Assembly (NCBI GenBank): GCA_016210545.1
Contig: JACQTY010000032.1
Coordinates: 1 to 53,212 of the forward strand
From: Chloroflexota bacterium
Lineage (GTDB): Bacteria > Chloroflexota > Dehalococcoidia > JACVQG01
Reading direction: 5' to 3'
Length of the DNA stretch: 53,212 nucleotides
Shown: in pieces, positions 15,296-35,276 of the stretch
How the letters are laid out: the number at the start of each line of letters is the position of its first letter
Position numbering within the stretch: the first letter of the stretch is position 1
Made by a program: the position numbers and the translations under genes
Notes under the pieces: generated by a model
The model's database searches: none
Told to the model about the DNA's origin: nothing
What the model saw: only the letters and a program-made list of their open reading frames with translations

Positions 15296-15532
15296 TGGAC
15301 AGGCTGTTCGGGCGTGAGTGGGAACGGCCGGAGCGGCTTGGGCCTTATCGAAAGCTTGCTTGCGCATGCCCGGGTCCCTCAGGATTTTCTATATGGTAGC
15401 GGGTCTGAGGTCCTGAGGCGTCCGGAGGAATACACCGGGCCGCTGGCTCGCCAGGACTGTCGTGTGTTGACCCGCCGTTCGGACTGGGGTACTATCAATC
15501 TGCGGAGTGAACGATGGACAAGCTACTTATTG
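15296..15532 (+). repeat. direct repeat P1 (promoter/leader plus first 7 codons of the Phd-like antitoxin), copy 1
   Basis: Aligns base-for-base with 16060-16288 (roughly 85% identical by eye). The antitoxin reading frame here stops after 9 codons (15514-15543). Confidence 0.85.
15467..15495 (+). promoter_or_regulatory. sigma70-type promoter TTGACC-17-TACTAT (copy in P1)
   Basis: TTGACC 15467-15472, 17-nt spacer, TACTAT 15490-15495, followed by a GGAG SD and ATG 15514. Confidence 0.55.
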
Positions 15533-15559: not shown

Positions 15560-15760
15560 TTGAATATCGAGATGGGACGCGAAGAGGATGGCCGGTGGAT
15601 AGCCGAAGTGCCTGATTTGGCAGGCGTCATGGTGTACGGAAAGAGCAAGAAAGAAGCTGTTTCCAAAGTCAAGGCTTTGGCCTTGCGTGTGATGGCTGAT
15701 CGGCTTGAACACGGGGAAGAAATCCCGGAACTCCGTGACATCTTCGCAGTAGAAGCATGA
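15560..15760 (+). CDS. hicB: HicB-family antitoxin (UPF0150 fold)
   Basis: 66 aa. EEDGRWIAEVPDLAGVMVYGKSKKEAVSKVKAL matches the HicB N-terminal domain pattern. Start is TTG 15560 or ATG 15572. Stop overlaps the hicA ATG (ATGA). Confidence 0.75.
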   Translation: MNIEMGREEDGRWIAEVPDLAGVMVYGKSKKEAVSKVKALALRVMADRLEHGEEIPELRDIFAVEA

Positions 15761-15971
15761 GCCAATGGCCGTCAACCAAAGCACGATTAGTTCTGGCTGC
15801 CTTGCTACGGATTGGCTGGATGGTCAGCGTCAATCTGGCACATCGCACCGAGTCTTATCCTGTCCCGGGCGGCCAGATTTCATTTTCGCGTTTCATGATA
15901 GAGAAGAAATAGGCCCTCAGATGCTGGCCCGTATTGCTAAGCGTACAGGGCTAACACCGGATGATCTATGA
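15757..15971 (+). pseudogene. hicA: HicA-family mRNA interferase toxin, frameshifted
   Basis: The N-terminus MSQWPSTKARLVLAALLRIGWMV is in the frame of ATG 15757. The C-terminus QSGTSHRVLSCPGRPDFIFAFHDREEIGPQMLARIAKRTGLTPDDL is in the track ORF frame (15765..15971). The frames switch near 15820-15830. Confidence 0.75.
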
Positions 15972-16001
15972 TTGGGGGCCTAAAGACAAATTCTCCCAAC
16001 T

Positions 16002-16059
16002 CCCCTTAGTAAGGGGGGCAGGGGGATTCCGGTACGGCAGTTCTTCCCCTTCTGCTCAC
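16002..16059 (+). repeat. repeat X1: degenerate copy of the REP hairpin plus acsC 3' end
   Basis: GGATTCCGGTACGGCAGTTCTTCCCCTTCTGCTCAC matches GGATTCCGTTACGTCAGTTCTTCCAGTTCTGCTTCA at 16664-16702. The latter contains the acsC stop and last codons. Confidence 0.75.
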
Positions 16060-16288
16060 TGGACGGGTTGTTCGGCGTAAGGGGGAACCGCCGGAGCGGT
16101 TTAGGCCTTATGGAAATCTTGCTTACGTACGCCCGGGTCTCTCAGGATTTTCGATATCGTACCGCGGGTCCTGAGGCGTCCGGAGGAATACACCGGGCCG
16201 CTGGCTCGCCAGCACCGTCGTGTTGACCTGCCATTCGGAATGGGGTACTATCAATCTGCGGAGTGAACGATGGACAAGCTGCTTATTG
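16060..16288 (+). repeat. direct repeat P2 (promoter/leader plus antitoxin start), copy 2
   Basis: See P1. Carries TTGACC 16223-16228, a 17-nt spacer and TACTAT 16246-16251, then a GGAG SD and ATG 16270. Confidence 0.85.
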
Positions 16289-16476
16289 ACAGCGTGCTTC
16301 ACCTCAAGCCAGCCGAACGTATGCGACTGCTGAAGCTCATCTACACCAGCCTTGAGCGGCCGGATACAACGATCGACAACATATGGTATGACGAAGCCGA
16401 GAGGCGGTTGGCTGCGTACAACGCGGGTAAAATCCAGGGCATTCCGGCTGATCAGGTGCTTGGCAAGCGCTCATGA
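16270..16476 (+). CDS. putative addiction-module antitoxin (Unstab_antitox / TIGR02574-like)
   Basis: 68 aa. LKPAERMRLL..L..SL ... WYDEAERRLAAYNAGK..GIPADQV is typical of this antitoxin family. ATGA overlap with the downstream toxin remnant. Confidence 0.7.
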   Translation: MDKLLIDSVLHLKPAERMRLLKLIYTSLERPDTTIDNIWYDEAERRLAAYNAGKIQGIPADQVLGKRS

Positions 16477-16631
16477 CCCTGGTCTTCGATCCTCTCGCTA
16501 AGAGGGAGTACGAGGATAGCTTCCAGTACTACGAAGGGGAGGGGGTTGGACGGGTTGTCCGCTCTAGCATGAGGAAAGGGCCTGCAGTAGGGGCAATTCA
16601 TGAATTGCCCCTACGGGCGGAGACGGGATGA
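16473..16631 (+). pseudogene. RelE/ParE-family toxin remnant (only about 25 N-terminal codons retained)
   Basis: MTLVFDPLAKREYEDSFQYYEGE matches the ParE/RelE N-terminus (F.P.A..E..ea..YYE). The frame then runs into REP hairpin sequence (GTAGGGGCAATTCATGAATTGCCCCTAC) and stops. Confidence 0.55.
16587..16614. repeat. representative GTAGGGGC...GCCCCTAC palindrome
   Basis: Perfect 28-nt palindrome GTAGGGGCAATTCATGAATTGCCCCTAC. Related elements are at 25447-25497, 25961-25984, 28092-28155 and 31694-31722. Confidence 0.8.
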
Positions 16632-16679: not shown

Positions 16680-18032
16680 TCAGTTCTTCCAGTTCTGCTT
16701 CAGGAAGCCGCCCACATCCACTGCCTCCCTGGGCCCGACCAGTATCTTCCAATCAGGCAGCTCTTCCTCCAGCTCGCCGCGGAGGACGGCCACGTGCCCG
16801 GGGATAACCACATTGCGGTGGCTGACGTTGTCGGCTATCTTGAAGTTCTTCACCGACTTGGCGATCTTTTCGGCGTCGAACTTGCCGGCGGCCCAGGCGG
16901 TGAGCACGGAGAGGCCCTCGGTATCGCAGACCACGAGCCAGGCGGCCCACCCCGCCGCTTCCAGCTCTCCGGCGATGGCGAAGTAGGTCAGCGAGAAGTT
17001 GGTGGTGATGCACACCGGACTTGTCGCCTTCGGCGTGCCTATCTGGACAATCTGCGGCGTCACCTGGATGGGCTTCTGCGGGTCGGTGTATATGTTCAGT
17101 CGCATGGTTAGCAGCGGGTATACCAGCGCCGGAGAGAAGTGGTCCAGGACTATGATGCCGGCATACTTGGCCACCTGTTGGGCAGCCAGCATGGCCTCGG
17201 TATCGAGGGAAGCAGCGGCCTCGCCGGGGAAGGTGATGACCGGGTAGCCCAGCGGGCGGAAGTTCTTCTTCAGGGCCAGGCGGCGGATCTGGGTCAGGGT
17301 GCTGAGCGAGGGGCCGAAGTCCCTGGCGCCGGGGTCCAGCACTATCTCTTCGATGCCTTTCTTGCTTACCTGATCCACCAGGGCGGTCAGGTCGTCCAGG
17401 GCGCCGTTGCTGGAGACAGCCAGCGGGCACTTGTTCTTGACGGCCAGATCGGCCATCTTTTCCCAGTTATCCTTGTTGGCGGCGTAGATGAGGGGCCTGC
17501 CCGGCGTCGCCTTGGCCAGGGCGGCCTCCATAGCCGCCGGGTCCTGCGAAATGAGCACCAGGGGCAGGTCGCTCTTGCTCTTGACCGCCTCCACCGCCTT
17601 GGCGAAGGTGGCGGCGTCCTTGGAGGTGTTCTCCACGGCGAACCCGTCCATGGTGAGGAACCTGCCTACTCTTTCCACCTTATACTCGGCTGCCGCCTGC
17701 ACCTGCTGCTGCAGGCTATCGGCGGGGGCGTTGTCCTTCACACGGAGGACGAGGCCCGGCGGATGGAAGAAGGTCTTCTCGTGACGGAACATCACCGTCT
17801 CGTTGCCCACCTCGAGCTTCTTGCTGTCCGAGCCGAGGGTGACCAGTTGAATCGGGGGACGCCCGGCAGCCTCCAGGGCAGCGCGGGACTCAGCCGAGAG
17901 GTCGGGGCAGGTGGTGATGTTCACGGTCTTCTGCGCCACCTTCATGGCGAAGGCCAGGCAGGTGGGGAAACCGCACTTTTTGCAGTTAGTCTTGGGCAGG
18001 AACTTGTAGATCTCTATTCCGGTAAGTGCCAT
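16680..18032 (-). CDS. acsC: corrinoid iron-sulfur protein large subunit (CFeSP gamma)
   Basis: 450 aa. N-terminus LTGIEIYKFLPKTNCKKCGFPTCLAFAM is the [4Fe-4S] motif of AcsC/CdhE. Confidence 0.9.
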   Translation of the reverse strand: MALTGIEIYKFLPKTNCKKCGFPTCLAFAMKVAQKTVNITTCPDLSAESRAALEAAGRPPIQLVTLGSDSKKLEVGNETVMFRHEKTFFHPPGLVLRVKDNAPADSLQQQVQAAAEYKVERVGRFLTMDGFAVENTSKDAATFAKAVEAVKSKSDLPLVLISQDPAAMEAALAKATPGRPLIYAANKDNWEKMADLAVKNKCPLAVSSNGALDDLTALVDQVSKKGIEEIVLDPGARDFGPSLSTLTQIRRLALKKNFRPLGYPVITFPGEAAASLDTEAMLAAQQVAKYAGIIVLDHFSPALVYPLLTMRLNIYTDPQKPIQVTPQIVQIGTPKATSPVCITTNFSLTYFAIAGELEAAGWAAWLVVCDTEGLSVLTAWAAGKFDAEKIAKSVKNFKIADNVSHRNVVIPGHVAVLRGELEEELPDWKILVGPREAVDVGGFLKQNWKN

Positions 18033-28190: not shown

Positions 28191-29348
28191 ATGAAGGATC
28201 TAGCACTCATACAGAACCCACATCGGGATGACAAGGTCATGGATGCCTGCGGCCTTTTCGGCATCATGGACACCTCCGGGAAGCGGTTCTCCGGAGCGGA
28301 CATCCTCAAGGCCATGACCAACATGCACGACCGCGGCAACGGCCTCGGCGGGGGCTTCGCCGCCTATGGCATCTACCCCGATCACGCGGAGTATTATGCC
28401 CTTCACATCATATTCATGACGCCGGCGGCCCGCCGCGAGACCGAGGACTTCCTCAAGCATAGTTTCTACCGTGTCCACGACGAGGACGTACCTACCCGCC
28501 CCACCAAAGGCATTGTCAACCCGCCCCAGTTGCGGCGGTACTTCGTGGACGTTGGCGAGCACCGCCCCGCCGACGTGGTCGACAACGACTATGTGGTGGA
28601 ACGGGTCATGGAGATAAATGCCAGGATCGACGGCGCCTTTGTGTTCTCCAGCGGCAAGAACATGGGCGTCTTCAAGGGCGTCGGCTTCCCCGAGGACATC
28701 GGGAACTACTTCCGGCTGGAGGAGTACCAGGGCTATCTGTGGACCGGCCATAGCCGCTTCCCCACCAATACCCCCGGCTGGTGGGGTGGGGCGCACCCCT
28801 TCAACATCCTCGACTGGACCGTCGTGCACAACGGTGAGATCTCTTCATACGGCATCAACCGGCGCTACCTGGAGCAGTTCGGCTACAAGTGCACCATGCA
28901 GACCGACACCGAGGTAGTGGCCTACGGGGTCGACCTGCTCATCCGTCGCCACGGCCTGCCCATCGAGGTGGTGGCCAAGGTCTTCGCCCCGCCCTTCTGG
29001 AGCCAGATCGAACGGGCGCCGAAGGCCGACCAAGAGCTATTCCGCACGCTGCGACAGGTCTATCCCAGCCTGCTGCTTAACGGGCCGTTCACCGTCATTA
29101 TCGCCCACCAGGGGGAGATGATCGGCCTCACCGACCGCATACGCCTGCGCCCCCTGACGGTGGGCGTGAAAGGCAGCATCGTGTATCTGGCATCGGAGGA
29201 AGCGCCTATCCGTCTTGTCTGTCCTGACGTGGAGAAGACGTGGATACCCAACGGCGGCGAGCCTGTTGTAGGCCGCCTGAGCACGGCGCCCGGCCCGCAG
29301 TTGCCGACGCCGACCCGGCGTGGAATTCTAGTAGAGGTAGCCCCATGA
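28191..29348 (+). CDS. class-II glutamine amidotransferase domain protein (archaeal-type GltB domain 1)
   Basis: The catalytic Cys context MDACGLFGIM and HSRFPTNT are typical of Ntn GATase-2. Start is uncertain (ATG 28170, 28191 or 28239). Confidence 0.8.
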   Translation: MKDLALIQNPHRDDKVMDACGLFGIMDTSGKRFSGADILKAMTNMHDRGNGLGGGFAAYGIYPDHAEYYALHIIFMTPAARRETEDFLKHSFYRVHDEDVPTRPTKGIVNPPQLRRYFVDVGEHRPADVVDNDYVVERVMEINARIDGAFVFSSGKNMGVFKGVGFPEDIGNYFRLEEYQGYLWTGHSRFPTNTPGWWGGAHPFNILDWTVVHNGEISSYGINRRYLEQFGYKCTMQTDTEVVAYGVDLLIRRHGLPIEVVAKVFAPPFWSQIERAPKADQELFRTLRQVYPSLLLNGPFTVIIAHQGEMIGLTDRIRLRPLTVGVKGSIVYLASEEAPIRLVCPDVEKTWIPNGGEPVVGRLSTAPGPQLPTPTRRGILVEVAP

Positions 29349-30850
29349 AGACCTACGTTCCCAACAAGTTCATTGTCGAGAGAGACGAGAGCAAGTGCGT
29401 CGGTTGCCAGGTGTGCGTCACCCAGTGTAGCTTTGAGACCCATTCCTGGGATGGCGAGGAGCAGGCGGTGAAGAGCCAGCAGGACCGCTGCGTGGGCTGT
29501 CACCGTTGCGCCATGTTCTGCCCCACCGGCGCCATCACCATCCGGCGCAACCCGCTGGAGTACCGCGAGAACTATAACTGGCGGGCGGAGTACATCGAGG
29601 ACGTTTACAAGCAGGCGGAGACGGGCGGCGTGCTGCTGACCGGCATGGGCACCGACAAGCCCCACAAGATCTACTGGGACCATCTGGTGCTGAATGCCAG
29701 CCAGGTTACCAACCCCTCCATAGACCCGCTGCGCGAGCCGATGGAGCTGCGCACCTATCTGGGCCGCAAGCCGGAGAAGGTGGAGCTTGGTCCGGGCAAC
29801 GCCTCTCTGAAGACCCGGCTGGCGCCCCAGGTGCCCATCGAGGTGCCGGTGATGTTCTCGGCTATGTCGTACGGGGCCGTCAGCATCAATGTCCACGAGT
29901 CCCTGGCGCGGGCGGCTACTGAGGCGGGCACGCTGTTCAACACCGGCGAGGGTGGCCTCCATCCCAAGCTGTACAAATATGGCCAGAACACCATTGTCCA
30001 GGTGGCGTCGGGGCGCTTCGGCGTCCACGCCGAGTACCTGGACGTGGGCCGGGTTATTGAGATAAAGATCGGACAGGGGGCCAAGCCGGGCATCGGCGGG
30101 CACCTGCCCGGCGAAAAGGTGAGCAAAGAGGTCGCCGAGGTGCGCATGATCCCCATGGGGACCGATGCCCTGTCCCCCGCCCCGCACCATGACATCTACT
30201 CCATCGAGGACCTGTCCCAGCTTATCTATGCGTTGAAGGAGGCCACCAACTACACCAAGCCGGTATCGGTGAAGATCGCCGCTGTCCACAACGCCGCGGC
30301 CATAGCCAGCGGCATGGTGCGGGCCGGCGCCGACATCATCGCCCTGGACGGCATCCGCGGGGCCACCGGCGCTGCCCCCAAGATAATCCGGGACAACGTG
30401 GGCATACCCATCGAGCTGGCCATCGCCTCGGTGGACTCCCGGCTGCGGGCCGAGGGTATCCGGAACCAGGCGTCGCTGGTGGCGGCGGGCGGCTTCCGCA
30501 ACGCCGGCGACGTGGTCAAGGCCATCGCCCTGGGAGCCGATGCCGTCTACATCGGCACCGCGGCCCTGATCGCTATGGGCTGCGCCGTGTGCCAGCAGTG
30601 CCACACCGGCAAGTGTGCCTGGGGCATCTGCACCTCCGACATTACCCTGACCAAGCGCCTCAATCCTGACATCGGCTCCCGGCGTCTGGCCAATCTGCTC
30701 CGGGCATGGAGCCTGGAGATAAAAGATATCCTGGGCGGCCTGGGCGTCAACGCCCTGGAGAGCCTGCGGGGCAACCGCCTGCACCTGCGGGGCGTCGACC
30801 TGACCGACACCGAGTTGAAGGTCCTGGGCGTGCAGATGGCGGGGGAATAG
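29345..30850 (+). CDS. glutamate synthase FMN-binding domain protein (GltB domain 2) with N-terminal 2x[4Fe-4S]
   Basis: Start ATG 29345 (ATGA overlap with the upstream stop). CVGCQVCVTQC and CVGCHRCAMFCP. GOGAT core FSAMSYGA, NTGEGG, IKI.QGAKPG.GG.LPG.KV, DG..GATGAAP. Confidence 0.85.
   Translation: MKTYVPNKFIVERDESKCVGCQVCVTQCSFETHSWDGEEQAVKSQQDRCVGCHRCAMFCPTGAITIRRNPLEYRENYNWRAEYIEDVYKQAETGGVLLTGMGTDKPHKIYWDHLVLNASQVTNPSIDPLREPMELRTYLGRKPEKVELGPGNASLKTRLAPQVPIEVPVMFSAMSYGAVSINVHESLARAATEAGTLFNTGEGGLHPKLYKYGQNTIVQVASGRFGVHAEYLDVGRVIEIKIGQGAKPGIGGHLPGEKVSKEVAEVRMIPMGTDALSPAPHHDIYSIEDLSQLIYALKEATNYTKPVSVKIAAVHNAAAIASGMVRAGADIIALDGIRGATGAAPKIIRDNVGIPIELAIASVDSRLRAEGIRNQASLVAAGGFRNAGDVVKAIALGADAVYIGTAALIAMGCAVCQQCHTGKCAWGICTSDITLTKRLNPDIGSRRLANLLRAWSLEIKDILGGLGVNALESLRGNRLHLRGVDLTDTELKVLGVQMAGE
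30684..30850 (+). repeat. direct repeat R1 = functional 3' end of the FMN-domain gene
   Basis: Near-identical to 31483-31652. The copies share 71 nt, then 1 substitution, 10 identical nt, a 13 vs 16 nt replaced block, then 68 identical nt. Confidence 0.9.
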
Positions 30851-30918
30851 ACCAGCTTGTTTTTCGCATTCCTGCCGGAGAACTAAGTTTTAGTTGAGCG
30901 TATGCTATAAGGACACAC

Positions 30919-31233
30919 GTGTTAGATAGTGTGCGTAAATGCTTTGCGTTGGAGAGGGCGCTCTATACCAGGCATGCCAGGCAAGAAATGCTGGGTGAGG
31001 AACTTGGGACTATAACTGATGGTGAGGTATTTGAGGCAATCCAAGCGGGGGAGGTCATTGAGAGCTATCCAGAGGATGAACCATATCCGAGCATCTTAAT
31101 ACTCGGCAAAACAGCACAAAAGAGGACTCTTCACCTGGTGTGCGCTTATTCTGAACAGGATGACCTTGCCATAGTAATAACTACTTATGAGCCGGATCCA
31201 TCTCGTTGGGTTGATGAGAGGAGGAGACGATGA
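30919..31233 (+). CDS. DUF4258-domain toxin-like protein
   Basis: 104 aa, low GC. YTRHARQEM...GEVIESYPEDEPYPSILILG...LHLVCAY...IVITTYEPD matches the DUF4258 pattern. Confidence 0.75.
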   Translation: MLDSVRKCFALERALYTRHARQEMLGEELGTITDGEVFEAIQAGEVIESYPEDEPYPSILILGKTAQKRTLHLVCAYSEQDDLAIVITTYEPDPSRWVDERRRR

Positions 31234-31463
31234 AGTGCGTAATCTGCAATAGTCCACATGTTGAAAATAAGCTGGTAGAAGAAGAAATCCACTCCGGACA
31301 GGATATCGTTATTGTGCCTATTGAAGTAGTGGTCTGCATGAATTGCGGCGAGCGGTACTATGACCGCAGGATGATGAGGTTTCTGGAGGAAACCGAGAGG
31401 AAGATAGCTAACAAGCAGATGAACCTTTCTCCTGTAGGGAAGGTACTTAGACCTACTGCTTAG
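31230..31463 (+). CDS. YgiT-type zinc-finger (MqsA N-terminal-like) antitoxin
   Basis: 77 aa. CVIC...(28)...CMNCGERYYD is the typical YgiT zinc ribbon. 4-nt overlap with the upstream gene. Confidence 0.75.
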   Translation: MKCVICNSPHVENKLVEEEIHSGQDIVIVPIEVVVCMNCGERYYDRRMMRFLEETERKIANKQMNLSPVGKVLRPTA

Positions 31464-31482
31464 CCCGGATATGGCGCCTGCT

Positions 31483-31652
31483 GTCTGGCCAATCTGCTCC
31501 GGGCATGGAGCCTGGAGATAAAAGATATCCTGGGCGGCCTGGGCGTCAACGCCATGGAGAGCCTTCCCGATGCATCGGGACTGCACCTGCGGGGCGTCGA
31601 CCTGACCGACACCGAGTTGAAGGTCCTGGGCGTGCAGATGGCGGGGGAGTGA
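31483..31652 (+). repeat. direct repeat R2 = orphan copy of the FMN-domain gene 3' end carrying a CCCGA-TGCA-TCGGG hairpin
   Basis: See R1. It still reads in frame to a stop (..ESLPDASGLHLRGVDLTDTELKVLGVQMAGE*). The hairpin is at 31565-31580. Confidence 0.9.
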
Positions 31653-31754
31653 GAGGCGAGATGTGGGAAGTGGGAGGTGGGGGGCACGGTCCTGTAGGGG
31701 CAGACCACCGTGTCTGCCCTACGCAAGCATCCTTCGAAAGGTAGTAGAGGAGAT

Positions 31755-32396
31755 ATGCCTTCCGAGCAGAAAGGGCCTAACGAAGACGCCCAGGGCTTGC
31801 ATGATTTTGTTAGCTGGCTGGTTCGCCCGCATCTCCCCTGGGAGAAGCCCAGCGAACAGGCACTTCAACATGTGTCCTCGCTAGTCCGGCGGCCGCCGTA
31901 CAGGGTTTTCTGCGACCAGCTACTTGAGGGCAGCGCCAAGAGTTTTCAAGATTTCATCGCAGAGCTTTTTCGGAAACGGGGGTTTGATGTAAGCCCAGGA
32001 CCACCGGGAGCAGACGAAGGGGTAGATTTACTACTTACAAGCTCTGAAGGAAACTTCATTGTCCAATGCAAAAGATGGAAAGGAAAAGTGGGCGTTCCAG
32101 TTGTAAGAGAGGTTTATGGAGCGTTCAATTGGTTCCAGAAGAAGATGGCACTCAAAGGTGCGCTTATAATACTAATGGTCTCATAATAGTCTGAAGCCAA
32201 ATGACCTTTGTGCTGAGGCCAGCAAGACCATACTAATATAAGACGATTAGTAACCGTAAGCGAATTTACCGACCAAGCCAAGGATTTTGTAAGCGAATTG
32301 GAAGTCCCACTGCAACTTATTGATGGTAGGCAATTGTTTGAGTTGGTTAGCCAGCATTGGCCAGATGCCCTGGTAAGCCAGAAGAAGGGGAATTAG
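31755..32396 (+). pseudogene. Mrr-cat restriction-endonuclease-domain gene, disrupted
   Basis: N-terminal part FQDFIAELFRKRGFDV..GADEGVDLLL..IVQCKRWKGKVGVPVVREVYGA ends at TAA 32184. The C-terminal part LVTVSEFTDQAKDFVSELEVPLQLIDGRQLFELV continues in the same frame from about 32247. Between them lie four in-frame stops (TAA TAG .. TGA .. TGA). Confidence 0.65.
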
Positions 32397-32430
32397 GGAC
32401 ATATAGCGTCCCGTAAGGGGCTAGAGCTTC

Positions 32431-32787
32431 ATGGGTACTTTTTCCCAATCAGTGCAAATCGCACCTTCGCCGGACGGCCCTTTCCAAACTGTGAAAGCGC
32501 TGGTGGACACAGGCGCCACCTACACCTGCCTTCCCCGAACTCTTCTGGAGAAGCTGGGCATAGCCCCGCGGGAAAAGCAAATGTTCATTCTGGCGGACGG
32601 GCGACGAGTGGAATACGAGCTAGCCGAGGTGCGACTGCGCATTGATGGACGGGAAAGGTTCACCGTCTGCGTCTTCGGGGAAGAGGGTGCCCCCGCTTTG
32701 CTGGGAGCGGTTACCCTTGAGGAATTCGGACTGGGTGTTGACCATGTCGGAAAGCGTTTAGTCCCCGTGCCGGGATACCTGGTCTGA
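32431..32787 (+). CDS. retropepsin-like (clan AA) aspartyl protease
   Basis: 118 aa with the catalytic LVDTGAT motif and a C-terminal LLG..L pattern, as in bacterial single-domain retropepsins. Confidence 0.75.
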   Translation: MGTFSQSVQIAPSPDGPFQTVKALVDTGATYTCLPRTLLEKLGIAPREKQMFILADGRRVEYELAEVRLRIDGRERFTVCVFGEEGAPALLGAVTLEEFGLGVDHVGKRLVPVPGYLV

Positions 32788-32825
32788 GAAGATTATAGAG
32801 AAGCTCTTTCCTTGAGGAGTCATTC

Positions 32826-33590
32826 ATGAACACGACTGTAAAGACCGTAAAGATCGATGCTGCCGGGGTCTACTACCGGGACCTGAACGCCCGCCTGCGG
32901 GAGCACGTCCAGAACAGTCCCGATGGATTGGGATACATCGAGATCCGTAACGTCTGCGGCCAGCGCTACATCGGCACCGACCTGGACAAGCCCGTCAAGA
33001 TCGACATCTACGGCGTCCCCGGCAACGACCTGGGGGCGTTCATGGATGGGCCGCAGATAACGGTCCATGGCAACGCCCAGGACGGCCTGGGCAACACCAT
33101 GAACAACGGAGAGATTGTCGTCCACGGCCATGCCGGCGATATCCTGGCCATGTCAGCCCGCGGCGGCAGGATCTTCGTCAAGGAGGACGTGGGCTACCGG
33201 GCGGGAATCCACATGAAGGAATACAAAGAGAAGAAGCCGATCGTGGTCATCGGCGGCGTCGCCCAGGACTTCATGGCCGAGTATATGGCCGGAGGGGTTA
33301 TGGTGGTGCTGGGACTCGGCCTGGAGAAAGGCGAATATCACCGGGCCAACTTCATCGGCACCGGCATGCACGCCGGCGTCGTCTACCTGCGGGGCAAGGT
33401 CCACGATTTCCAGTTGGGCAAAGAGGTCGGCGTCAAAGACCTGGATAGCGCCGACCAGCAGGTCCTGGAGGGCCTGGTCAAGGACTTCTCCGGCTACTTC
33501 GGCTACCAGGCAAACGAGATCCTCAAAGAGAAGTTCATCAAGCTGTTCCCGCTGTATTTGAGGCCGTACGGACGGCTGTATGCCGGGTGA
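32826..33590 (+). CDS. glutamate synthase GXGXG-domain protein (GltB domain 3)
   Basis: 254 aa. Repeated beta-helix motifs (VHGNAQDGLGNTMNNGEIVVHGHAGD, GGRIFVKEDVGYRAG, MAGGVMVVLG). Confidence 0.85.
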   Translation: MNTTVKTVKIDAAGVYYRDLNARLREHVQNSPDGLGYIEIRNVCGQRYIGTDLDKPVKIDIYGVPGNDLGAFMDGPQITVHGNAQDGLGNTMNNGEIVVHGHAGDILAMSARGGRIFVKEDVGYRAGIHMKEYKEKKPIVVIGGVAQDFMAEYMAGGVMVVLGLGLEKGEYHRANFIGTGMHAGVVYLRGKVHDFQLGKEVGVKDLDSADQQVLEGLVKDFSGYFGYQANEILKEKFIKLFPLYLRPYGRLYAG

Positions 33591-35099: not shown

Positions 35100-35276
35100 A
35101 GCGGGGGTTTTCGATGCTAAGCAAAGACATGACGGCAAGTCCCGATGCATCGGGATTGGCCCGGCTTTGTCCGAGTCCGGGTTCCGCGGCCAAAAATATG
35201 ATAACCCGGCGGCCACGGTCGCGTTGGAAAACACGACCTACAAATTGAATCGCTGATTTTGGGCGCGACACTACCC

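Follow-up and report, generated by a model that had tools for sequence, protein, structure and literature searches.

How does a toxin-antitoxin (TA) cassette without a visible mobility gene come to lie between two glutamate synthase genes, bracketed by two copies of the end of the upstream one? The question is raised by contig JACQTY010000032.1 of the Chloroflexota bacterium assembly GCA_016210545.1 (Dehalococcoidia), analysed over its whole length of 53,212 nucleotides (nt) and called the window below; it is contig C237 of a draft genome of 263 contigs and 3.34 Mb. Behind the glutamate synthase FMN-domain gene the window contains a DUF4258 toxin gene, a YgiT/MqsA-type antitoxin gene and an orphan second copy of the 3' end of the FMN-domain gene. 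The answer that we consider reasonably probable is that incoming DNA, consisting of a gene end and the cassette, recombined in the conserved gene end and displaced the resident end. The features concerned are as follows; L031 is the closest relative found for the FMN-domain gene, and L111 is a contig with a related cassette.

29240..30850, plus strand: glutamate synthase FMN-domain gene (archaeal-type split gltB), intact; Pfam Glu_synthase, E = 1.6e-138
30684..30850, plus strand: R1, gene-attached copy of the repeat, with the conserved ...ESLRGNRLHL... block
30851..30918, plus strand: cassette leader; 30851-30905 without counterpart in L111, homology from 30906
30919..31233, plus strand: predicted DUF4258 toxin gene, 104 amino acids, GTG start; Pfam PF14076, E = 2.7e-20
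31230..31463, plus strand: predicted antitoxin gene, 77 amino acids, YgiT/MqsA-type zinc ribbon without a helix-turn-helix (HTH) domain; TIGR03831
31464..31482, plus strand: junction stretch, possibly a degenerate leftward continuation of the orphan copy
31483..31652, plus strand: R2, orphan gene-end copy, with native tail and downstream sequence
31565..31580, no strand: 16-nt perfect palindrome TCCCGATGCATCGGGA, replacing the native 13 nt GCGGGGCAACCGC
31653..31720, no strand: native intergenic sequence with the GTAGGGGCA...TGCCCTAC hairpin, colinear with the FMN-GXGXG spacer of L031
32826..33590, plus strand: glutamate synthase GXGXG-domain gene; Pfam GXGXG, E = 2.2e-32

R1 and R2 form a direct repeat with 94% identity over 166 nt (BLAST, E = 1e-66) and a spacing of 799 nt, and this sequence has only these two copies in the whole draft genome. 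Pairwise alignment reproduced the near-perfect duplication described in the first-pass annotation of this DNA: 71 identical nt, a C/A difference (30755 / 31554), 10 identical nt, a block of 13 versus 16 nt, and 68 identical nt, after which R1 ends in GAA-TAG and R2 in GAG-TGA. The last 4 nt of R1 (A-TAG, 30847-30850) are absent both from R2 and from the relatives. The frame of the orphan copy is open to its TGA stop, again as had been noted. The protein block ...ESLPDASGLHL... encoded by R2 is unique; the RGNRL block of R1 is present in all relatives.

Weak homology of R2 to the gene continues for ~19 nt further left, to 31464, right after the antitoxin stop codon. This extension contains one gap (BLAST high-scoring segment pair of L031 2925-3164 with window 31464-31704) and, as it comes from a BLAST comparison with the closest relative, it is suggestive only; an extension in register without gaps was tested and was unconvincing. 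Within 31464-31482, CCCGGATAT matches the L031 allele in 9/9 positions and the window's own gene in 6/9, and the next stretch matches in 6/10. The CCCGGATAT stretch may be the microhomology of an illegitimate joint.

The DUF4258 and zinc-ribbon genes are the only open reading frames (ORFs) between R1 and R2. GC content is 0.455-0.50 between the copies and 0.62-0.72 in the flanks, so that the earlier description of a low-GC TA pair as the sole content of the insert stands. The toxin scores 72.9 bits against PF14076 (cut-off 25), and the antitoxin scores 27.9 bits against TIGR03831 YgiT_finger (cut-off 20.2); the match of antitoxin residues 1-63 to Pfam MqsA_antitoxin (E = 1e-4, 22.8 bits) is below the cut-off of 30. 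The toxin stop codon is overlapped by the antitoxin start (ATGA, 31230-31233). By these matches the 0.63-kb cassette is classified as a predicted type II TA module of the DUF4258 and YgiT/MqsA type. Both genes are under purifying selection: when the window is compared with L111, dN/dS, the ratio of non-synonymous to synonymous rates, has values of 0.18 (toxin) and 0.15 (antitoxin), with dS 0.51. An exact-protein look-up of the antitoxin matched no record, and PDB sequence searches with the toxin and the antitoxin gave no significant match. A promoter and terminator scan found no plus-strand promoter of the cassette, and therefore the cassette may be transcribed by read-through from the gltB genes. 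The FMN-domain gene itself has orthologues with 74-81% identity in the relatives, and its true start is probably the ATG at 29342.

The next question is what this site looks like where the cassette is absent. In relatives, a search for the empty site that had been proposed earlier showed the FMN-domain gene directly followed by the GXGXG-domain gene in all metagenome loci holding both genes (75/75). The same order was seen in the plus-strand GTDB loci in which both genes were located (L002, L004 and L012). The gap between the two genes is -8 to +123 nt in relatives versus 1975 nt in the window. In G001, a genome of the same genus (66% complete), the FMN-domain gene was not found.

The empty site of L031 (JGI1356J14229_10008089, 94% at the amino acid level) also gives the polarity of the insertion. 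This fragment aligns to both R1 and R2, and its gene ends in GAG TGA, not in GAA TAG. The ~53 nt after its stop codon are colinear with the R2 tail and window positions 31653-31704, and the alignment found no counterpart in L031 of the low-GC DNA that follows R1. Since L031 matches the R2 tail with the downstream sequence and nothing after R1, the orphan R2 adjoins native downstream DNA, and the working gene ends in a foreign A-TAG running into the cassette. Together with the empty site in relatives, these tails support the earlier proposal that the incoming DNA brought with it a gene end of its own, by which the host gene was regenerated.

We suggest the following scheme. The donor would be a related lineage in which the cassette already stood directly behind the FMN-domain gene, and its DNA would have the form "gene 3' end + stop + cassette". 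One exchange would occur within the homologous gene end. The other joint, of the cassette 3' end to ~31464-31483, would be illegitimate: either a small circle had been closed there (Campbell-type single crossover), or a linear fragment was joined there by its end (homology-facilitated illegitimate recombination). The product would be a gene with the foreign equivalent end R1 (GAA TAG), the cassette, and the resident end R2 (GAG TGA) orphaned on native DNA; no element-encoded recombinase would be required. A circle and a linear fragment lead to one and the same product and cannot be told apart; the joint of such a circle would be identical to the cassette-to-R2 junction. Additive integration of this kind would explain the foreign tail of the gene, the native tail of the orphan, the end of the repeat at the stop codon, the allele-like differences at other loci described below, and the absence of a recombinase. 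The cassette would then have homology to the same gene on both sides, and a double crossover could move it to any genome with this gene, whatever lies downstream. This portability step, as well as the donor and the form of the DNA, is what we infer.

Is the locus an isolated case? Comparison of the genome with itself gave ~21 genome-unique local repeat pairs, with lengths of 46-273 nt, identities of 82-98% and spacings of 467-1061 nt; GC content between the copies is usually lower. Pfam-supported TA-type cassettes lie within 12 of the ~21 pairs, the gltB locus included. The enclosed cassettes are of the types HicA/HicB, DUF4258/DUF2283, PIN with a MazE-type partner, MNT/HEPN or HepT, and PaREP1. 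A HicAB pair at 15.3 kb of the window has Pfam hits below the cut-off only, and HicB-type cassettes in three more pairs were recognised by eye only. The remaining pairs enclose GIY-YIG, DUF559, ORF6N or DUF6036 genes. The duplicated pieces are mostly 3' ends of core genes; at three loci (on contigs C32, C206 and C208) they are 5' ends. Repeat-flanked inserts with single genes (GIY-YIG, DUF559, ORF6N) were observed at C25 19011-19641, C87 5739-6367, C3 6306-6997 and C69 11978-12715, and the repeats of the C3 insert have further copies elsewhere in the genome.

The window itself contains a second duplicated flank:

15296..15532, plus strand: left copy of the second duplicated flank (repeat X1), with the promoter region and first codons of an Unstab_antitox antitoxin gene
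15560..15971, plus strand: HicB-like and HicA-like pair between the two copies; weak Pfam matches to HicB_lk_antitox and HicA_toxin
16060..16288, plus strand: right copy (repeat X2), leading into the resident Unstab_antitox / ParE-like cassette

The two copies are 87% identical over 237 nt. The HicBA-like pair is followed by a degenerate copy of the acsC 3' end (~15995-16060), and the resident Unstab_antitox / ParE-like cassette (16270-16631) adjoins the true acsC 3' end (stop at 16680, minus strand). The first-pass annotation had suggested, from this locus and the gltB locus, a recurrent landing of TA cassettes on the 3' ends of core genes. The recurrence is strongly supported by the ~21 pairs, and the locus at 15.3-16.7 kb follows the same logic; the restriction to 3' ends is not, given the three 5' ends.

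The same cassette family occurs at other genes as well, in line with the earlier suggestion to look for it with different flanks. Homologues of the toxin (n = 54) come mostly from Dehalococcoidia/Chloroflexi. In L111, L112 and L113, contigs of Dehalococcoidales metagenome-assembled genomes (MAGs), the toxin is 83% identical at the amino acid level and the DNA is 86% identical over window positions 30906-31465. In these contigs the cassette stands behind etfA, the end of which is duplicated over 170-225 nt with a spacing of 826 nt (799 nt in the window). L111 and L112 share an identical cassette-to-R2 joint, but have differing R2 tails and downstream genes, and this pair is consistent with the portability step. 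A more distant cassette, in L123/L124, stands behind hycI and has a 159-nt repeat (88%). Past the repeat there are differing C-termini, homologous at the protein level only, EQVDGLQESIVNSLAEF versus RRMDEMKTLIISQINSQILSH, and these tails are evidently two diverged hycI ends. The repeat in L119-L121 is 33 nt long.

Two side observations concern these loci. The leaders in L111 (960-1000) and L116 (3430-3470) have a common GGGGAGCCAATT stretch similar to a tRNA 3' end, which may have been carried along from the surroundings of an earlier insertion. In L114 (1-7315; Dehalococcoidia MAG JACVQG010000029.1), the row leuC-leuD-leuB-leuA is broken by three addiction-type inserts, namely MqsA-like and RelA_SpoT genes, a DUF4258 pair with a GyrI-like gene, and a ParE-like pair. 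Such peppering of core operons with TA cassettes seems typical of the group to which L114 belongs.

The repeat pairs at these other loci allow one to ask whether the orphan is a decayed duplicate or an allele. The coding parts of 18 pairs (15 from this genome and 3 from other MAGs; the near-identical gltB pair was excluded) were compared by codons. Differences in the first, second and third codon positions are distributed as 41:29:136, the share of the third position being 0.66 (p = 5e-6 versus a share of 0.5). There are 114 synonymous and 63 non-synonymous codon differences, and 15 of the 18 pairs have no insertions or deletions. In all 14 orphans tested the frame stays open up to a stop codon, which in 10 of them is at the exact position of the gene stop, and their substitutions look conservative. 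Thus the copies look like functional alleles of two lineages that later became adjacent, and not like duplicates decayed in place, because a dead copy that had drifted by 5-18% would show no such third-position and in-frame pattern.

These data bear on an alternative scheme, in which the target was duplicated in place: a staggered break or template switching would have copied ~167 nt of the recipient sequence, and the orphan would have diverged later. The identity of R1 and R2 over 71 + 10 + 68 nt is as expected shortly after such an event, and the repeats are long and variable across loci, like those at insertions of restriction-modification units (Furuta, Abe and Kobayashi 2010, PMC2853133). 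However, at the gltB end the last 4 nt through the stop codon lie outside the homology; they come from the insert (A-TAG) and leave the protein unchanged, an outcome with an estimated chance of ~2% for a random insert. The pair on contig C25 likewise ends in differing stops, TGA versus TAG. The mostly synonymous differences and intact frames at the other loci, and the two diverged homologous tails in the hycI case, are also contrary to duplication in place, which we therefore regard as rather unlikely.

Several points weigh against the integration of a foreign gene end, and they are gathered here. Outside the replaced block, R1 and R2 at the gltB end are almost identical; therefore the allele argument rests on the other loci, on the tails and on 31464-31482, and the near identity needs a very close donor or a later gene conversion. 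An excess of third-position differences could also result from a later exchange of the working copy by allelic recombination, the orphan being frozen. The deviant features of R2, the Met single-nucleotide polymorphism (SNP) and the palindrome, can be read in two ways: in the circle model both would lie on the incoming copy as the result of a crossover in the last 68 nt, and in the linear model both would have arisen in the orphan afterwards. For the FMN-domain gene, no clean "gene-cassette" arrangement that could mark a donor was found. Flanking repeats are missing from the related cassettes of L114 and L116, and thus the duplication footprint is frequent, not universal. Finally, unitigs with k = 31 cannot phase the identical stretches of 71 and 68 nt, and the order of the segments rests on the original assembler.

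A further scheme starts with a tandem duplication of the gene end that predates the cassette; the cassette would then have been inserted between the two copies, and later allelic recombination in the working gene would have produced the synonymous differences. The third-position bias alone cannot separate it from integration of a foreign gene end. However, it needs three separate events at each of ~20 loci, and it leaves unexplained why the inserts lie exactly between the copies and why the same architecture is seen at three genes in different genomes; moreover, no tandemly duplicated gene end lacking an insert came to notice in the census. We consider this scheme quite improbable.

The last point concerns the assembly. 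If it was mis-phased, the chromosome would be empty (native block, 68 nt, GAG TGA, downstream sequence), and the cassette with the palindrome copy would form a separate 799-bp circle or a tandem array. All non-native features would then be on one molecule. The Logan contigs used to examine this come from groundwater metagenome runs of one study, which may include the source sample of the genome. In run X1, separate contigs cover all four junctions (30586-30713, 30817-30948, 30919-31512 and 31619-32171) at a depth of 9-15, and in run X4 the cassette-to-R2 junction is also covered. In run X2 (86% subset) the R1-specific and R2-specific blocks have equal depth. Run X3, with a depth of only ~3x over window positions 30300-32900, covers the gene and the downstream sequence and has no contig on the cassette or the R2-specific block; it is too shallow for calling an empty-site strain. 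No empty-site joint was seen in the Logan contigs.

The unitigs thus confirm each junction and not the order, and run X3 is as a mis-phased assembly would have it. On the other hand, the depth of the cassette in run X1 (~10) equals that of the flanks, and the MAG assembler crossed the repeat in an unbroken contig. Related cassettes are integrated unambiguously where the repeats are 84-92% identical, and one Logan contig, L124, covers R1, cassette and R2. The diverged repeats of the other loci cannot be mis-phased. An assembly artefact is accordingly very unlikely.

Could a recombinase acting in trans have moved the cassette? In this scheme it would be a non-autonomous element between attL and attR, similar to a cis-mobilisable one, the repeat being the att identity segment. 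Duplicated 3' ends of genes are indeed the classic footprint of tyrosine integrases, and the leaders of L111 and L116 have the tRNA 3' end-like remnants. However, no integrase or transposase was seen among the called ORFs at 26.8-35 kb, six of which were scanned with Pfam; these ORFs were read as glutamate synthase parts, an Mrr_cat fragment, an aspartyl protease and a regulator. The target genes are many and unrelated, with three of the duplications at 5' ends. The copies differ by 2-18% along their full length with no exact core, and the 21 duplicated sequences have no shared core motif, their commonest 7- to 9-mers being at random expectation. A recombinase in trans is, in our view, highly improbable. 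The first-pass annotation had left the choice between Campbell-type and site-specific insertion. A single site-specific recombinase is now disfavoured, because no core motif beyond chance and no integrase among the neighbouring ORFs were seen, while a Campbell-type circle stands beside a linear fragment as one of two routes to the same product.

The palindrome within R2 was considered separately. R1 versus R2 is a without/with pair for this element: TCCCGATGCATCGGGA has 32 exact copies in the 3.34-Mb genome and 160 at no more than one mismatch. Another copy in the window is at 35140-35155, and the copies often have extra complementary flanks specific to the locus. A link of the palindrome to cassette insertion was rejected: 3 copies lie near the 21 cassettes versus 1.3 expected, and only the R2 one of these sits within a repeat. 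We read the palindrome in R2 as a separate process colonising a dead gene end.

The hairpin in the intergenic sequence after R2 predates the cassette, because the closest relative L031 has it at the same position. This sequence (31653-31720) has short matches on other contigs. Hairpins of the repetitive extragenic palindromic type, GTAGGGGCA...TGCCCCTAC, were observed at 31697-31727 and 16593-16620. Between R2 and the GXGXG-domain gene there is a second, unrelated insertion of 1.1 kb (~31721-32825). The features of this region are as follows.

31710..32186, plus strand: Mrr_cat restriction-endonuclease fragment; Pfam Mrr_cat, E = 2.1e-16, profile positions 5-76 of 115
32170..32253, no strand: 84-nt dispersed repeat, with 99-100% copies on contigs C235, C184 and C86
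32431..32787, plus strand: retropepsin-like aspartyl protease gene, 118 amino acids; Pfam Asp_protease_2, E = 7.5e-10

The Mrr_cat ORF is part of the second insertion and is truncated by the 84-nt repeat. The first 23 nt of this repeat are found no more than ~140 nt from an end on six contigs, and the repeat is probably the end of an insertion sequence (IS) or a miniature inverted-repeat transposable element (MITE) that breaks the assembly. The aspartyl protease gene, whose match to TIGR03698 is below the cut-off, lies just upstream of the GXGXG-domain gene and is absent at this site in all relatives.

The movement of chromosomal TA loci is a long-standing gap: the loci are patchy and horizontally transferred, mostly without a mobility gene. 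The gltB locus and its parallels offer a concrete footprint, a duplicated end of the neighbouring gene, and a testable mechanism that involves host recombination only. The strength of the case is in the recurrence and in the testable mechanism, not in the single locus. The footprint could be used to date and trace the gain of TA cassettes in MAGs, and annotators are warned not to take the short orphan "gene ends" next to TA pairs, which are recombination scars, for genes. A broader hypothesis, which we offer tentatively and with more doubt than confidence, is that in Dehalococcoidia, and perhaps more widely, TA and small nuclease cassettes are non-autonomous mobile elements that have no recombinase and no specific ends, use duplicated core-gene ends as portable homology arms and spread by host recombination alone. 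If this is true, the repeat-flanked loci are the footprint of a general, previously undescribed route of TA spread, which helps to explain operons peppered with TA cassettes.

As to its content, the cassette resembles the DUF4258/MqsA modules of PMC11980606, where DUF4258 is placed in the BECR / RelE-ParE fold superfamily of toxins, the family is said to be still undescribed in the literature, and DUF4258-MqsA fusions are listed. The PF14076 match is well above the cut-off, and the partner has an MqsA/YgiT zinc ribbon. However, unlike MqsA-type antitoxins, the partner is only a 77-amino-acid zinc ribbon with no HTH domain.

A likeness to the TA cassettes of integrons is seen in that the cassettes are small, promoter-poor, often of the TA type and added singly. 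In L117 (1700-5050; JGI Ga0209979_1002074), a row of TA cassettes (PIN, DUF4258, CopG and others) was observed, with a junction repeat of 60-130 nt recurring between them, which is reminiscent of an integron-like cassette array. Unlike integron cassettes, those described here are dispersed beside core genes and are bordered by duplicated parts of the adjacent gene in place of attC sites; a recombination motif common to them was not found.

As to the mechanism, additive integration, in which the anchor becomes directly duplicated, results when one homologous anchor is combined with one non-homologous joint, and it needs no dedicated recombinase. Homology-facilitated illegitimate recombination was reportedly described in natural transformation by de Vries and Wackernagel in 2002. 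Campbell-type and homology-facilitated integration are known mainly from laboratory constructs and transformation assays, whereas here a natural, recurrent route of TA cassettes is suggested by sequence comparison.

The closest known phenomenon, as judged from the architecture of the loci, is the "insertion with long target duplication" described by Kobayashi's group for restriction-modification units (Nobusato et al. 2000, Gene 259:99; Furuta, Abe and Kobayashi 2010, PMC2853133). There, the unique direct repeats are longer than 30 bp and reach ~420 bp, and the events are ascribed to a property of the restriction enzyme, such as double-strand breakage (PMC2853133). A literature search for TA loci with long target duplication or flanking direct repeats returned only the restriction-modification papers and unrelated matches; no paper on this footprint for TA loci was found, with partial coverage of subscription journals. 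The two phenomena have in common a small addiction-type unit with no mobility gene, long, variable and genome-unique repeats (166 nt, 94% here), the alignment of both repeats to a single copy in a relative without the insert, an often deviant GC content of the insert, and the overlap of some repeats with the 3' end of a gene. The present observations extend the phenomenon to TA modules and add evidence on the mechanism. They differ in that the cargo at the gltB locus is a DUF4258 / YgiT-type TA pair, that a dozen or more loci are found in one 3.3-Mb genome, and that the copies are allele-like at the loci tested (not at gltB, where they are near-identical). The allele-like copies argue for homology-anchored addition and not for duplication of the recipient's target.

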